From: a virus
Reading direction: 5' to 3' (one strand)
Virus record (IMG/VR): IMGVR_UViG_3300046011_002684
Location: 1-64,000 of that record
DNA: 64,000 bases
The notes under the pieces were generated by a model. That model was not told the origin of the DNA. It worked only from the letters and a program-made list of their open reading frames with translations, and did no database searches. Made by a program: the position numbers and the translations under genes. Below, piece by piece: positions 8,786-63,356 of the stretch; position 1 is the first letter of the stretch, and the number at the start of each line of letters is the position of its first letter.

Positions 8786-8807
8786 ATGAGCCCCTATGAA
8801 ATATGAT

Positions 8808-8880
8808 TGGAGCGGGTGGCCAGAATCGAACTGGTCTCCTACAGCTTGGAAGGCTGGTTGGCTACCATAGCCTCACCCGC
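8808..8880 (-). tRNA. tRNA-Gly(UCC)
   Basis: Cloverleaf, loop CUUCCAA, U73, CCA. Confidence 0.92.
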
Positions 8881-8996
8881 ATAAGCGCTCGTCTCTCCGA
8901 GCTGTCACACCGATCCATAGAGCCGGAGCCAAGGACCACTTCACGCTAGTGTAACGTGGGTTAGACTCATATCATGTACTATCCACAAATTAATAA

Positions 8997-9082
8997 CTGG
9001 ATGGTCTGTGGACCTCGATGATACTATCATAACCGCTTGAACATGTAAGTTACCTTACTTGCTTGGTTGCAGTATCCATCCA
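8997..9082 (-). ncRNA. Y-like small RNA, copy 1
   Basis: Minus strand UGGAUGG-AUAC-UGCAA ... CCAUCCA-G; same terminal stem and motif as six other copies. Confidence 0.55.
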
Positions 9083-9095
9083 AATAGTATATATG

Positions 9096-9527
9096 TTAAA
9101 TTTCAGTCCAAGCTTTTACTTTATCGCAGTGAGCTTTCCAAGGTTCTGCATCATACTCATAACGCATACGCTCTCTGTTCCATTTCTTACTCAGTTTGCC
9201 AGCAGTTGGTCCGTACTTGTTTACCATCTCGCATACACGAGGAAGGACGTAAGCACGAAGCACCATAGGATCGTGGCACTTGTTCTCAATGGTCTTATAT
9301 TCTTTACCAGCAAGATAAGCACGAGCAAGGAAGGTAGCACGATTCTCGTTACGCACTTCCCAACGACGGTGAGTGCTCAAAGAACGATAAAGTGAAGCTT
9401 CTTTTTCAAATGGTTGCTGACGGTCTTTGTGCCAGTTCATTTGTCTCTTTACTTTACGCTCTTCAAAACGAATGATACGAGCTTCTTCTGAAAGGTGTTT
9501 AGATTTAATTTTAAGTTCTACAGACAT
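9096..9527 (-). CDS. basic protein of unknown function behind an amber-containing leader
   Basis: 143-aa ORF with AGGAG RBS that is complementary to the upstream uORF end. Confidence 0.8.
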   Translation of the reverse strand: MSVELKIKSKHLSEEARIIRFEERKVKRQMNWHKDRQQPFEKEASLYRSLSTHRRWEVRNENRATFLARAYLAGKEYKTIENKCHDPMVLRAYVLPRVCEMVNKYGPTAGKLSKKWNRERMRYEYDAEPWKAHCDKVKAWTEI

Positions 9528-9576
9528 TTTATTCTCCTAAATTGGTTCATTGGTTCTTCATAATGTAAGGCCCAAT

Positions 9577-9615
9577 TTAGGGCGGTCTAGTAATCTACAA
9601 GTGATATCTCTTCAT
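9577..9615 (-). promoter_or_regulatory. uORF MKRYHL-UAG-ITRPP-UAA, candidate amber-readthrough translational switch
   Basis: AAGGAG RBS 8 nt before ATG; CCUAAAUUGG at the uORF end pairs 10/10 with CCAAUUUAGG over the downstream SD. Confidence 0.7.
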
Positions 9616-9770
9616 TTGTATTTCTCCTTTATTAAAGGTTAGTTATCCGACTCCAAACATGCACTACCTGAGAAGGTTTTTATCGGTTTTACCAGCATGT
9701 TCCGTGGTTAATATAAGAATTCATGAGTTGTCTCGGTTACTCTCATGGGTTACTTATAACGTCGAATTGG

Positions 9771-9848
9771 TGGTGGCCCAAGCGGGATTCGAACCCGCGA
9801 CCGTGAGTTTTAGAGACTCGCGCTCTTACCAAGCTGAGCTATTAGGCC
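9771..9848 (-). tRNA. tRNA with CUA anticodon (amber suppressor)
   Basis: Canonical D and T arms, acceptor GGCCUAA/UUGGGCC, A73, loop CUCUAAA. Confidence 0.88.
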
Positions 9849-10115
9849 TTATTTCTCGCTACTACCAAAGAAGAAGTTAATGATAGTAGAAACCGCAGTA
9901 CCAAGCAAAAATCCTAGGATAATATTGGCAAAGTTTTCTCCCGCTGGTGGCACTGTAACGAATGTCACTGCAAAGAAATAAATGGCACTAATAATGCCCC
10001 AGAACCAAGCAAACCAATAGGTGAAGTGAACTGCCACTTTATCACCCTTTTTGACTAGTTCTGCATGTACATTCTTTAAAGACCCATCTTCGATAATTTC
10101 TTTATTTTCTTCCAT
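9849..10115 (-). CDS. small membrane protein, possible holin
   Basis: Two TM helices ending GFLLGTAVSTIINFFFGSS; about 1 kb from the endolysin. Confidence 0.5.
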   Translation of the reverse strand: MEENKEIIEDGSLKNVHAELVKKGDKVAVHFTYWFAWFWGIISAIYFFAVTFVTVPPAGENFANIILGFLLGTAVSTIINFFFGSSEK

Positions 10116-10143
10116 CTCGAACCTTCCTACTGTTTATCTATAA

Positions 10144-10208
10144 CAGGATCGTTTTGTCCGCTAAGACATCCAATACGATTTAGCGTTTTTGTTTGCTGAA
10201 CCGATCCT
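10144..10208 (-). ncRNA. Y-like small RNA, copy 2
   Basis: AGGAUCG-GUUC-AGCAA ... CGAUCCU-G with inner CGCUAA/UUAGCG stem; near-identical to 13897-13960. Confidence 0.7.
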
Positions 10209-10215
10209 AAATTTT

Positions 10216-10292
10216 TGGTCGGAGTAGAAGGATTCGAACCATCGACCTCTAGTACCCAAAACTAGCGCACTACCAAACTGTGCTATACTCCG
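10216..10292 (-). tRNA. tRNA-Pro(UGG)
   Basis: Cloverleaf, loop UUUGGGU, CCA. Confidence 0.93.
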
Positions 10293-10296
10293 ATAT

Positions 10297-10372
10297 TGGC
10301 TCCCTGACGTGGGCTCGAACCACGGACCCGATGATTAACAGTCATCTGCTCTACCAACTGAGCTATCAGGAA
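10297..10372 (-). tRNA. tRNA-Asn(GUU)
   Basis: Cloverleaf, loop CUGUUAA, G73, CCA. Confidence 0.95.
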
Positions 10373-10394
10373 ATAATCTTATTTTATATATGCG

Positions 10395-10613
10395 CTATTG
10401 AACGCGATATTCTACAATAATATCATCAATCATACCAATAGCAAGATTGACAGTTTCTTCGTCTACGTAACCCAATGCACCTTCGAGCATTCCAATCGTA
10501 ATTGCTTCTTCGATCTTTTCCCGATTTGCTTTACCATCTACCAAAGGAAGATGAAGTTCATTCAGGAGGATATCCAACGAAAGATCGGAAACGGAGACAG
10601 TTTGTACGTTCAT
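10395..10613 (-). CDS. hypothetical protein
   Basis: GAGG RBS, TAG stop. Confidence 0.6.
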   Translation of the reverse strand: MNVQTVSVSDLSLDILLNELHLPLVDGKANREKIEEAITIGMLEGALGYVDEETVNLAIGMIDDIIVEYRVQ

Positions 10614-13252: not shown

Positions 13253-13329
13253 TGGTGCCCATGGAGGGACTCGAACCCCCAACATACGCGTTCTAAGCGC
13301 GCCGACTCTACCAGTTGGCCTACATGGGC
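13253..13329 (-). tRNA. tRNA-Leu(UAG), short variable arm
   Basis: Loop CUUAGAA, A73, CCA. Confidence 0.88.
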
Positions 13330-14054: not shown

Positions 14055-14242
14055 ATATCTTTGCCAATCTGCACCCTCATGGCGGGTCTCCTAGCTATCT
14101 ATAACTCGTATTAAGCCCGAGGTTTCGCAATGTCTAGGACGTTGGCTTTTGTTTTAGACTGGGCTGTTTGCAGCTTTGACCTGCCGGCGATGACGGATCA
14201 GGGACACCTTCACAAGAGGTGATTACTTCTACAGTCTAAACT

Positions 14243-16902: not shown

Positions 16903-16979
16903 TGGTGTCCCTGAGAGGATTCGAACCTCCAACTTCGTGGCCCTCAACCACGAGACTCTACCAATTGGTCTACAAGGAC
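16903..16979 (-). tRNA. tRNA-Leu(GAG), short variable arm
   Basis: Loop UUGAGGG, A73, CCA. Confidence 0.88.
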
Positions 16980-20424: not shown

Positions 20425-20515
20425 TGGTAGAAGTGGGTGGATTCGAACCACCTCAAAGGCGCTAATCTGGCGCAAAGAGTTTATAAGACTCCTCTGACTA
20501 CCAAGTCTCACTTCC
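20425..20515 (-). tRNA. tRNA-Ile(UAU), short D arm and long variable arm
   Basis: Loop CUUAUAA, canonical T arm, A73, CCA. Confidence 0.72.
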
Positions 20516-21572: not shown

Positions 21573-22787
21573 CTATTTCGAGAAAATATCGGTAAACTTT
21601 GAAGTGATTTCAGATATATATCCTTCGTCCGCAATAAGTGGTGCGCATAGATACAGATTTGGTATTTCTGCTAATTTTCCGCTGAGTCCAAATTTATGTT
21701 GATTTCTTGCTTGAAATTTATCTGTCAGATCCATACTCATCATAACCCCGGCTGTTCTATAGGAAAGAATTAAACCAGTCTCTAAGAAATGATTACCCAT
21801 TTCATTAAGCCATCCGTTAATCTTAGGAACATTATCAAGTATTTTATCCCTTTCATAAATCTTTTTAACTGCTTTAAGTGCCCCAATACCGCCCATATAC
21901 GGACAATAGGTGTGTCCGTATGAAAAATTATTCTTTATAATATCTTTTACTTTTTGGGTACAAACTGTTGCACCTAAAGGAGCATGCCCAGCTGTGATGC
22001 CTTTTCCTAGACATGAAATATCAGGTTGCACGCCACCCCCATGGGCTTTATGGGTGTGTATAGTTCCCATTTTACCAAATCCAGCAGAAACATCGTCGAT
22101 AATCATTAATATATCATACTCGTTACATATAGAACGAATTTTTTTCCAGAAATTTTCACTGAAAGGGGCTGTTTGGAACCAAGGAACTGGATCAAATACT
22201 ATAGCACCTATATAACGAGATTCTTTTTCTATTTGTTCTAAAAGATCGGATATTACCCTAGATTCTTCCCCCTCTCTTTCATTTAAATATCTCCAGGCGG
22301 GGCCTTTAATGAATATTGATCGTTCGCTATTCCAATATTGGTAATTTCTTATACCCATACTTTTAGTTAGATAAGAAGTGCCGTGCCATGTACCAGAAAA
22401 AGATATAATTTTCTTCTTTTCAAATTTACCTAGAGATTGCCAGTAAGAATCATTCATAGATATAGCACATTCTACTGCACCGGTGCCGGTAACAGACCAA
22501 GCTATACCAGACCAGTCTCCAGACTCACAGATCCAAGAAGAAACTTCTTCAATGCTATCAGTGGTCTGTGCCCTAGCGGTTTGACAGCGAGAAACAGAAA
22601 TTAACTCATTATAGATAGAATCTATAATTTCTTTATTACTATAACCTAAAGTAAAGGCTATAGAATGTGTATAATCTAAAAGTTTTCCGTGTTTTTCCGT
22701 ATAGAGGTAATGACCTTCGGTCTTATTAATATACGTAAATTCTTCTATACGTTTATTCAAAAACGGTAATATTGCATATTTAGACAT
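21573..22787 (-). CDS. class III PLP-dependent aminotransferase
   Basis: WHGTS, IIDDVSAGFGKMG, PDISCLGKGITAG, GHTY. Confidence 0.88.
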   Translation of the reverse strand: MSKYAILPFLNKRIEEFTYINKTEGHYLYTEKHGKLLDYTHSIAFTLGYSNKEIIDSIYNELISVSRCQTARAQTTDSIEEVSSWICESGDWSGIAWSVTGTGAVECAISMNDSYWQSLGKFEKKKIISFSGTWHGTSYLTKSMGIRNYQYWNSERSIFIKGPAWRYLNEREGEESRVISDLLEQIEKESRYIGAIVFDPVPWFQTAPFSENFWKKIRSICNEYDILMIIDDVSAGFGKMGTIHTHKAHGGGVQPDISCLGKGITAGHAPLGATVCTQKVKDIIKNNFSYGHTYCPYMGGIGALKAVKKIYERDKILDNVPKINGWLNEMGNHFLETGLILSYRTAGVMMSMDLTDKFQARNQHKFGLSGKLAEIPNLYLCAPLIADEGYISEITSKFTDIFSK

Positions 22788-62538: not shown

Positions 62539-62868
62539 TTAGAATTCGAAACGAACACCAACCTGAGCATCTTCATAAGCCATATCTGCGTCTGCCTGAA
62601 CAGCACCGAAGACGTGGACAGCATTGCTTAGACCATAAGCAGCTTCAACACTTACGCCATCGAAGGTAAGACCGTCGGTGTTAGCGGTAGCATAGAGACG
62701 TGGTGCAACGGAAAAATCGCCGAATGCAAGATCAGGACCCGCTTCAAGTGCAACTGCTTCATTCTCTACTGAATAAGCAGCTTCACCGGAAACGCCGAGA
62801 TAAGGGTTAGCGAAAGCTGAAGTGGCGAGGGTTGCAGCAGCTACAGTAGAAAGAAGAAATTTCATCAT
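62539..62868 (-). CDS. small outer-membrane beta-barrel-like protein
   Basis: Signal peptide ...SAFA, alternating beta strands, terminal GVRFEF. Confidence 0.7.
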   Translation of the reverse strand: MMKFLLSTVAAATLATSAFANPYLGVSGEAAYSVENEAVALEAGPDLAFGDFSVAPRLYATANTDGLTFDGVSVEAAYGLSNAVHVFGAVQADADMAYEDAQVGVRFEF

Positions 62869-62896
62869 TTTATATTTCCTTTGAGATTAGAGTTAA

Positions 62897-63235
62897 GTGG
62901 TCCGTTCTGTTTCTAGGTGGAACCATACCCAAAGTACTTAAGCAGCTAGTGCGTAAGCCTTAGGAGCAAAGTTATCGTTTGCATTTGTAGGTTTGGCTGA
63001 ATAACGTAGGCCAACACGGTAATCTCCACATCTTTTCAACACCTGTCGATCCTATTTCGAGCCCATCAGAAACATGCTAAGTTTACGACCATTACGCCAA
63101 GACCGGTGGGGTACCAAGCCTGTTGAGAACCTATATTAGGTAGTCACTTTATCCTGCATCCCTTAGCATGTTTGTGGTGGACCCGCTGGGTACTGCCCCC
63201 AGGTCCAGAATGTCTATCGTCTGCTTCAACGATTA
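62897..63235 (-). ncRNA. ssrA: two-piece (circularly permuted) tmRNA; tag ANDNFAPKAYALAA
   Basis: T arm GGGGGCAGUACCC, CGGGUCC-A-CCA ending 63175; 110-nt stem-closed intervening segment; GGGCUCGAAAUAGGAUCGAC from 63064 (G3:U70); tag ORF 62938-62982; outer ends approximate. Confidence 0.92.
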
Positions 63236-63356
63236 CAGATACTATTTAACCATATCTACTAGTGATTGTACATATCTAATTCCTATATTCCGGTCTGACG
63301 TGATAATTATGATACGCCCGTCAGAGTCGTAGAATATATGCCTATAGTTTTCGTAT

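Follow-up and report, generated by a model that had tools for sequence, protein, structure and literature searches.

Organization of the locus

The stretch of DNA analysed here (the window, 64,000 nucleotides) is the first 64 kb of the 90,207-bp viral record IMGVR_UViG_3300046011_002684, for which CheckV gives a completeness of about 51%. All genes, all 33 tRNAs and a permuted transfer-messenger RNA (tmRNA) are carried by the minus strand. This report concerns a cassette in which a tRNA with the anticodon CUA is followed by a short leader open reading frame (ORF) interrupted by an in-frame UAG, and then by a gene for a basic protein of 143 amino acids. The Shine-Dalgarno (SD) sequence of this gene can pair with the end of the leader ORF. 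The features are given in window positions and the cassette is read along the minus strand.

9771 to 9848, minus strand: suppressor tRNA with anticodon CUA, seven-nucleotide loop CUCUAAA and encoded CCA (ARAGORN; Rfam)
9640 to 9770, minus strand: structured spacer from tRNA to leader, closed by a terminal helix (minimum free energy fold)
9624 to 9629, minus strand: SD of the leader ORF, AAGGAG (sequence)
9577 to 9615, minus strand: leader ORF M-K-R-Y-H-L-UAG-I-T-R-P-P-UAA (sequence; relatives with the same architecture)
9595 to 9597, minus strand: sensor stop UAG, next base A (column invariant or nearly so in alignment A2)
9580 to 9585, minus strand: Pro-Pro codons CCG CCC, the putative ribosome pause site, directly before UAA at 9577-9579
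9572 to 9581, minus strand: 5′ arm of the masking stem, CCTAAATTGG, starting 16 nt past the first base of UAG
9547 to 9561, minus strand: mini-ORF AUG-AAG-AAC-CAA-UGA in the hairpin loop (sequence)
9536 to 9545, minus strand: 3′ arm of the masking stem, CCAATTTAGG, overlapping the SD
9534 to 9538, minus strand: SD of the 143-amino-acid gene, AGGAG (sequence)
9096 to 9527, minus strand: gated gene for the 143-amino-acid basic protein, N-terminus MSVELKIKSKHL (ORF list)

The leader ORF (ATG AAG AGA TAT CAC TTG TAG ATT ACT AGA CCG CCC TAA) starts at 9613-9615, 8 nt past AAGGAG and 155 nt from the tRNA, and its peptide has 12 residues. The 5′ arm CCTAAATTGG overlaps the Pro-UAA of this ORF and is the exact reverse complement of CCAATTTAGG (10 of 10 pairs), which in turn covers AGG of the SD AGGAG. 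The tRNA, SD, upstream ORF, ten-pair stem and masked SD that a preliminary description had read from the letters are each present, to the base. A megablast search with positions 8800-10400 against phage records gave nothing beyond an 80-nt tRNA match.

Two smaller elements accompany the leader. The 130-nt spacer is closed by the helix UUCGAC...GUCGGA and resembles stem-closed inter-tRNA elements of the same genome; by eye, similar spacers are seen at close relatives (L001, L010/L040, L012/L042 and L016/L064, the L-numbers denoting homologous loci). The mini-ORF of the hairpin loop stops 1 nt ahead of the 3′ arm, and AUG-AAR mini-ORFs can be recognized by eye in hairpin loops of the most closely related leaders (L032, L040, L042, L077 and L099) and are absent from other lineages.

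The suppressor tRNA and the genetic code of the record

The tRNA at 9771-9848 scores 66.1 bits against a cut-off of 29 with the Rfam tRNA model, and ARAGORN folds it into a canonical cloverleaf with discriminator A. Canonical fold and stop-complementary anticodon are what is expected of a nonsense suppressor; the label 'Pyl' that ARAGORN attaches to it stems from the anticodon alone. It has no close paralogue among the 32 other tRNAs of the record, where the best identity is 72%.

The 90-kb record uses the standard code, because reading TAG as sense yields no additional long ORFs: those of at least 300 amino acids number 22 with TAG either as stop or as sense, and the lengthening of ORFs that marks recoded (code 15) phages is not seen. 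It follows that the leader is the only evident client of the suppressor in the available 90 kb, and, given the standard code, gating of the 143-amino-acid gene is taken to be a main job of tRNA(CUA) here. Read-through extension of TAG-ending genes was also considered and rejected, as each of the three in-frame continuations found opens with an ATG and is a small gene in its own right. They follow the TAGs at window positions 21573-21575 and at genome positions 64709-64711 and 84515-84517 (minus strand), each in the same frame and 0-20 codons on. One of these small genes is glutaredoxin-like, and an active amber suppressor would fuse such pairs.

Conservation of the leader architecture

The window was compared with loci from viral contigs, three cultured phages and two metagenome-assembled genomes (MAGs). 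Scans of viral contigs contributed 30 and 80 loci, and a further two that started from divergent members added 5 and 19. Loci with identical upstream regions or with less than 100 nt of upstream sequence were dropped, which left 71 distinct leaders. Statistics on 53 leaders refer to those that were parsed out of the first 59, the parser requiring a start behind an SD-like site, no more than 13 codons up to a stop and, beyond it, Pro-Pro in the frame that read-through would use. The significance of the cassette derives from this comparison, since the evidence from the window taken by itself is weak.

A common design, consisting of a sensor stop and a Pro-Pro in the read-through frame on or near the SD-masking stem, is found in 69 of the 71 distinct leaders, distributed as follows.

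UAG then Pro-Pro: 62 of 71 leaders
UGA then Pro-Pro: 1 of 71 leaders
UGAA then Pro-Pro in the +1 frame: 6 of 71 leaders
Without the design: 2 of 71 leaders (L057 and L023)

Each of the 53 parsed leaders has an SD-like site ahead of its start, and the peptide before the stop varies freely, both in sequence and in length, from one codon (AUG-UAG or UUG-UAG) to 10. Directly behind the sensor stop stands A in 32 of them, G in 17, C in 4 and U in none, so that 49 of 53 have a purine there. A purine after an amber codon favours suppression, and the purine-rich context fits this preference. The proteins of L002-L007 are 70% identical to that of the window, and by eye some 64 nt of their leaders agree with the window leader in every base.

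Matches in cultured phages come from Synechococcus phage BUCT-ZZ01, Bacteriophage DSS3_MAL1 and Phage NCTB. In BUCT-ZZ01 a tRNA(CUA) is followed by MGGDAS-UAG-INLKPP-UAA, and in DSS3_MAL1 a tRNA annotated as 'tRNA-Pyl' is followed by MKS-UAG-IRPPP-UGA. Both MAG loci fit the design as well.

The parser rejected six leaders (L063, L065, L102, L028, L057 and L023), some of which carry longer reading frames. In L063 (1195-1446) and L065 (1177-1437) M-S-UAG or M-S-L-UAG is followed by an in-frame ORF of 81-83 codons that ends in Pro-Pro-UAA on the 5′ arm, and in L102 the UAG closes an ORF of 61 codons and is followed by K-V-F-K-P-P-UAA. The ORFs in or ahead of these three leaders have no match in Pfam or PHROGs. 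An ORF is likewise inserted between the amber 'start' and the Pro-Pro-stop of L130, and the inserts of L063, L065 and L130 may encode a real small protein made solely by read-through. The leaders of L045 and L046 have a read-through frame that stays open, in frame, into the gated gene, so that suppression would give an N-terminally extended fusion; gene callers gave 161-amino-acid forms of these 147-amino-acid proteins.

Matching of tRNA and sensor codon

The linkage of such leaders to a suppressor tRNA, proposed in the preliminary description as a check among homologues, recurs together with the leader and its anti-SD pairing. Within 1500 nt upstream of the leader a suppressor-type tRNA is found for 65 of the 69 leaders with the design, and all 65 fit the sensor, with no mismatches. 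Anticodon CUA goes with UAG in 61 cases (53 plain ARAGORN calls, four with odd CCCUAA-type loops, and four found by pattern, three of which are also Rfam matches). Anticodon UCA goes with UGA in one case (L086). The remaining three are tRNAs with an eight-base loop, CU-UUCA-AN, which go with UGAA in the L028, L118 and L135 lineages (L028-30, L118/119 and L135/136). In the UGAA leaders the zero frame ends at UGA, and the arrest motif can be reached solely by reading four bases. The motifs in the +1 frame are as follows.

L028: CRGPP-stop
L118: CRAPP
L135: NNRGPP
L131: PIRSPP
L134: LIQKPP-stop
NCTB (LT598654): CNRGPP

The closest comparison of two sensors is that of L086/L120 with L121-L123, whose gated proteins are 96-98% identical. 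L086 combines tRNA(UCA) with a UGA leader and L121-123 combine tRNA(CUA) with a UAG leader, the leaders being otherwise homologous. This matched difference indicates that tRNA and sensor were exchanged together.

These observations bear on the view that hairpin and spacer serve the processing or stability of RNA from the tRNA array and that the small ORF is incidental. The cassette does lie inside a tRNA array, the 130-nt spacer is structured, and other structured, stem-closed spacers occur between tRNAs of the region. Nevertheless this explanation is extremely improbable: the relatives share a coding logic (an SD and a start, an in-frame stop, the frame, Pro-Pro and a second stop) around a pre-stop peptide that is free to vary, the sensor tracks the anticodon of the tRNA, even to the +1 frame for UGAA, and the 3′ arm always lies over the SD or the start codon.

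Masking stem, geometry and putative stall motif

In all 53 parsed leaders at least half of the SD core is paired to the 5′ arm, and in 30 it is paired fully; in L028 the 3′ arm covers the start codon. The arm sequences differ among lineages while their complementarity is kept. The duplex of a 5′ arm with its cognate SD window has a mean of -12.7 kcal/mol, compared with -7.3 kcal/mol (standard deviation 2.7) for non-cognate combinations (n = 53). Among 23 representatives with dissimilar 3′ arms the cognate mean is -13.2 kcal/mol, compared with -7.33 ± 0.45 kcal/mol for derangements; not one of 20,000 derangements reaches the cognate value, and 14 of the 23 cognates rank first.

The 5′ arm starts 13-25 nt past the first base of the sensor stop (median 21, window 16, one outlier at 58) and at -5 to +5 nt relative to where the Pro-Pro codons end. 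A footprint model was applied in which the ribosome reaches 12 nt beyond the first base of the A site, an assumed value on which the figures that follow depend. In this model the mean cost of opening the SD is 6.85 kcal/mol with the ribosome at the sensor stop and 1.25 kcal/mol with the ribosome at Pro-Pro; the corresponding values for the window are 4.9 and 1.9 kcal/mol, and the cost drops in all 53 modelled leaders. The window thereby displays the hallmarks of a translational attenuator: a leader with its own SD and start, a hairpin that sequesters the next SD and, according to the model, a putative stall site over the 5′ arm.

The effect could in principle have the opposite sign. A ribosome that reads through to Pro-Pro-stop might provoke cleavage of the mRNA in the A site and tagging by tmRNA, so that suppression would lower expression of the gene. 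C-terminal prolines reportedly induce SsrA tagging at termination (Hayes et al., 2002), and this phage encodes a tmRNA, as does BUCT-ZZ01, near its cassette. Such a negative switch is very improbable, given that the SD is masked at rest in 53 of 53 leaders and, in the model, freed by a ribosome at Pro-Pro; a gene that was off in both states would be useless, yet the protein family is strongly conserved.

The leaders fall into two classes with respect to the stall motif. All nine leaders without a stop after Pro-Pro carry RSPP, RGPP or RDPP, and in the 41 leaders that lack R-x-P-P a stop always comes within one codon of Pro-Pro, a split that is suggestive rather than a clean statistic because the nine leaders come from about three lineages. 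R-[SGDA]-P-P occurs in 12 of the 53 parsed leaders (RAPP in one, RGPP in three), and further RGPP, RAPP and RSPP motifs are found in the UGAA group. According to PMC12992588, RAPP and RGPP are validated as robust arrest motifs and RDPP and RSPP are described as partially permissive. The preliminary description had counted RPP among established pause sites; it differs from the validated R-x-P-P arrest motif, the window having T-R-P-P and then a stop. The class to which the window belongs (T-R-P-P-UAA) would depend on slow termination after a C-terminal proline. Such slow termination was reportedly seen in E. coli work by Hayes et al. in 2002.

The two classes also bear on plain translational coupling, in which ribosomes that have read through would melt the hairpin in passing or re-initiate, as happens in RNA phages. 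In that case no pause at Pro-Pro would be required, and the motif could be a by-product of CCN-CCN resembling an anti-SD. Several features would suit this view: the read-through frame of L045 and L046 enters the gene in frame, that of L048-L053 crosses the SD, the loop mini-ORF at 9547-9561 is a possible re-initiation relay, and CCUCCU and CCACCU resemble the anti-SD of 16S rRNA. Against it, Pro-Pro is present in 69 of 71 leaders and persists in leaders whose 5′ arm begins only past the stop and contains no proline codons (L038, L067 and L090). The pairing of R-x-P-P with the lack of a stop, and of other x-P-P with a stop, is moreover what a requirement for pausing predicts. Coupling without a pause is thus judged improbable.

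Proposed mechanism

The conserved architecture, the match of sensor and anticodon, the covariation of the arms and the footprint model together support the switch that the preliminary description had read from the window. On sequence evidence it is considered likely that translation of the 143-amino-acid protein is licensed by suppressor-tRNA read-through of the leader, a ribosome paused at Pro-Pro-stop unmasking the SD. In this scheme, release by release factor 1 (RF1) at UAG would stop the ribosome some 16 nt before the 5′ arm, leaving the hairpin closed and the gene off. When tRNA(CUA) is expressed, processed and charged and outcompetes RF1, the ribosome would proceed five codons and pause when Pro-Pro has reached the peptidyl-transferase centre and UAA occupies the A site. 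The paused ribosome, sitting on the 5′ arm, would free the SD, and a second ribosome could initiate on the 143-amino-acid gene. Output of the gene would rise in proportion to read-through and so reflect how active the suppressor tRNA is relative to the release factor. The same logic would apply to the relatives, with UGA and tRNA(UCA), or with UGAA and the eight-base-loop tRNA(UUCA) and a +1 shift. Where the arrest motif is a self-sufficient R-x-P-P, no stop would be needed behind it, and none follows.

A number of points weigh against this reading. That the tRNA is charged, that UAG is read through, that the ribosome pauses and that the SD is thereby unmasked is in each case inferred. In the window, the minimum free energy fold of the leader contains the masking stem but is just modestly better than shuffled sequences (z-score -2.18; 3 of 200 shuffles fold equally well). 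The bare motif TAG-x(2-6)-Pro-Pro-stop is expected by chance, with two occurrences in the 90-kb record compared with 1.16 expected from Markov simulations of the same length, 64 of 200 of which reach two; the second occurrence, at 14077-14097, adjoins a tRNA-Ser gene and looks fortuitous. RNAalifold, applied to the MAFFT alignment A2 of 31 leaders, returned no consensus pairs, a null result that is attributed to arms lying out of register between lineages and that leaves the claim of covariation to the per-sequence duplex test. The T-R-P-P-stop of the window lies outside the tested R-x-P-P class. Among the relatives, the amber leader of L057 lacks Pro-Pro and stands beside a degenerate tRNA, and the L023 protein comes directly after a tRNA-Val, with no leader and no suppressor tRNA in 3.6 kb. 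Four leaders (those of L063, L131-133, L134 and phage NCTB) have no matching tRNA in the search zone, and in NCTB Rfam detects no tRNA anywhere in the record. Finally, with the record about 51% complete, the missing half may hold further UAG clients of the suppressor.

What the switch would respond to can be read in another way. The tRNA could be constant, with the variable being the activity of host RF1 (RF2 for UGA and UGAA) or the charging or integrity of the tRNA, in which case the module would report the translational state of the host, for example its amino-acid supply or the action of a host anticodon nuclease. The leader measures by construction a competition between tRNA and release factor, and a circuit closed among tRNA, leader and gene requires an input from outside. 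The self-contained module is also present in a complete 73.6-kb phage genome in which just one other tRNA was found, and the frameshift site of prfB is a precedent for a stop codon as a gauge of release factor. On the other hand, the tight linkage of tRNA and leader is explained equally well by co-inheritance of a matched pair, and nothing in the sequences separates a sensor of host state from a switch set by the phage tRNA. The host-state explanation is regarded as rather unlikely.

Returning to licensing by the phage tRNA, a wider proposal is that the cassette is a mobile, self-contained 'decoding-state switch'. The tRNA would be a dedicated trans-acting regulator of one gene, and the same chassis would have been re-tuned to UAG, UGA and the four-base codon UGAA. 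The gated protein, with its invariant M1-S2-x-E-L-K-x-K-x-K, would be a new factor that acts on the translation apparatus, made once phage decoding works. This extension is put forward tentatively, with the balance tilted slightly against it.

Relation to known systems

The leader shares with the ermC/ErmCL and cat attenuators an upstream ORF with its own SD, a hairpin that hides the next SD, and a stalled ribosome on the 5′ arm. In those systems the trigger is a ribosome-bound antibiotic, whereas the stall site of the phage leader is reachable just by stop read-through by a dedicated tRNA. Such use of a dedicated tRNA as input would be new in the control of genes by ribosome-stalling leaders.

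ApdA, ApdP, ApcA and SecM (RAGP) provide a second likeness (PMC12992588, PMC10951233 and PMC7897499), in that a C-terminal x-Pro-Pro in a small upstream ORF would halt the ribosome and thereby control the gene behind it. Unlike peptides of the RAPP type, the phage leaders have 7-20 codons, carry no export signal, are not upstream of Sec or YidC genes, and have their motif locked behind a stop codon. The leader in the window has no R-[A/G]-P-P core, and its downstream gene encodes an unannotated phage protein.

The in-frame stop as a gauge of termination efficiency is known from prfB, where RF2 synthesis requires a +1 frameshift at an in-frame UGA, and from tnaC. In prfB the frameshift occurs in the same ORF and senses the gene's own product; the phage leader instead sets a separate tRNA against the release factor and would act through unmasking of the SD of another gene.

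Phages that recode stop codons are similar in that a suppressor tRNA of the phage acts as a post-transcriptional switch that turns on late and lysis genes (bioRxiv 10.1101/2021.08.26.457843). In that source, standard-code phages with suppressor tRNAs are also noted, and the stops of recoded phages are placed inside many structural and lysis genes; here the code is standard and the one evident client is a leader of non-coding size that would act through RNA structure. The word 'leader' is absent from that preprint. The theta-ribozyme paper on viral suppressor tRNAs concerns the processing of tRNAs (PMC10879173). A full-text literature search, covering main texts, found no description of a natural leader gated by a suppressor tRNA.

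The tRNAs of L028, L118 and L135, with their 8-nt anticodon loops, would read four bases and move the frame by +1 in the manner of sufD, sufJ and engineered quadruplet tRNAs (qtRNAs). Unlike the laboratory tRNAs they are natural, conserved and paired with a target in cis; the tRNA of the window has a normal 7-nt loop.

If the mechanism holds, the unexplained suppressor tRNAs found in many standard-code phages would acquire a concrete job, with a tRNA as gene regulator. Stalling leaders would gain a new kind of input in the read-through of a stop or four-base codon by a dedicated tRNA, and quadruplet decoding would be a means of regulation in nature. The cassettes would be the natural counterpart of engineered amber-gated circuits and would offer dozens of orthogonal tRNA/leader pairs, among them natural decoders of UGAA. 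Cultured carriers allow direct tests, namely BUCT-ZZ01 on S. elongatus PCC 7942 and DSS3_MAL1, the record of which names no host.

The gated protein

A search of a metagenome protein collection gave 864 homologues, all unnamed, and a profile search gave 2968 clusters at 50% identity (E ≤ 1e-3). The cassette thereby points to a very large phage protein family whose expression would be tied to the state of decoding. In a collection of 185,579 species genomes the family occurs at two loci, both on MAG contigs, and otherwise it is found on phage contigs. Its N-terminus is near-invariant (M1, S2, E4, L5, K6, K8, K10 and L12), and further conserved motifs are H-R-x-W-D-V-R-N-E-N-R-A-T-F-L-A-R-A-Y and M-V-x-K-Y-G. 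The N-terminal conservation is at the level of the protein, as distant members differ by synonymous changes.

The 143-amino-acid protein and 33 relatives have no credible match in Pfam, PHROGs, NCBIfam or the sequence profile of the PDB. The best matches below credibility are thioredoxin (E 0.39), ParE_like (E 0.071, for one member) and one PHROG (E 0.0089). The ESM Atlas gave no usable match, and neither the window protein nor P0040 has a model there. Three candidate relationships were rejected. A longer fused form rests on one protein of 333 amino acids with PF00867 and is probably a run-on of the gene call; T4 Trna.2 and Trna.3 are unrelated, with profile-comparison probabilities of 3% and 0.1%; and Pth2 is not part of the cassette, being absent from this record and above the cut-off in just 5 of 34 related records.

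The genes that follow the gated gene vary and are mostly further tRNAs, which indicates that the module in this lineage consists of the tRNA, the leader and one gene. The preliminary description had further suggested that the protein may act on termination or on the suppressor tRNA in a feedback loop. Since the same family stands behind UAG, UGA and UGAA sensors, an RF1-specific role of the protein seems unlikely. That the protein is a nucleic-acid- or ribosome-binding factor in the take-over of translation, produced only when the phage's decoding machinery is in working order, is conceivable, though the idea is viewed with reserve.

Contigs from RNA libraries of four studies hold pieces of the region or of close relatives. 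A 346-nt record of this kind (X17) joins the leader and the 5′ part of the gene, covering 9458-9629. Such contigs give a weak hint of transcription and do not prove it, and stretches that they leave uncovered carry no information.

Other features of the record

The RF00023 model gave no match above cut-off in any of 34 records, just sub-threshold tRNA-like pieces; ARAGORN nonetheless finds tmRNAs in this phage and in BUCT-ZZ01. Both are permuted (of the two-piece type in this phage), and they lie at window positions 62847-63270 (minus strand) and, in the cyanophage BUCT-ZZ01, at L111 3385-3803, about 0.5 kb downstream of its cassette. The 33 tRNAs of the half-complete record do not include a tRNA-Tyr. 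Two tRNAs of 77 nt at 13253-13329 and 16903-16979 (minus strand) are called 'Leu' (UAG and GAG) by ARAGORN, a length that leaves no room for the long variable arm typical of bacterial tRNA-Leu. A 91-nt tRNA-Ile(UAU) is called by the same program at 20425-20515 (minus strand).

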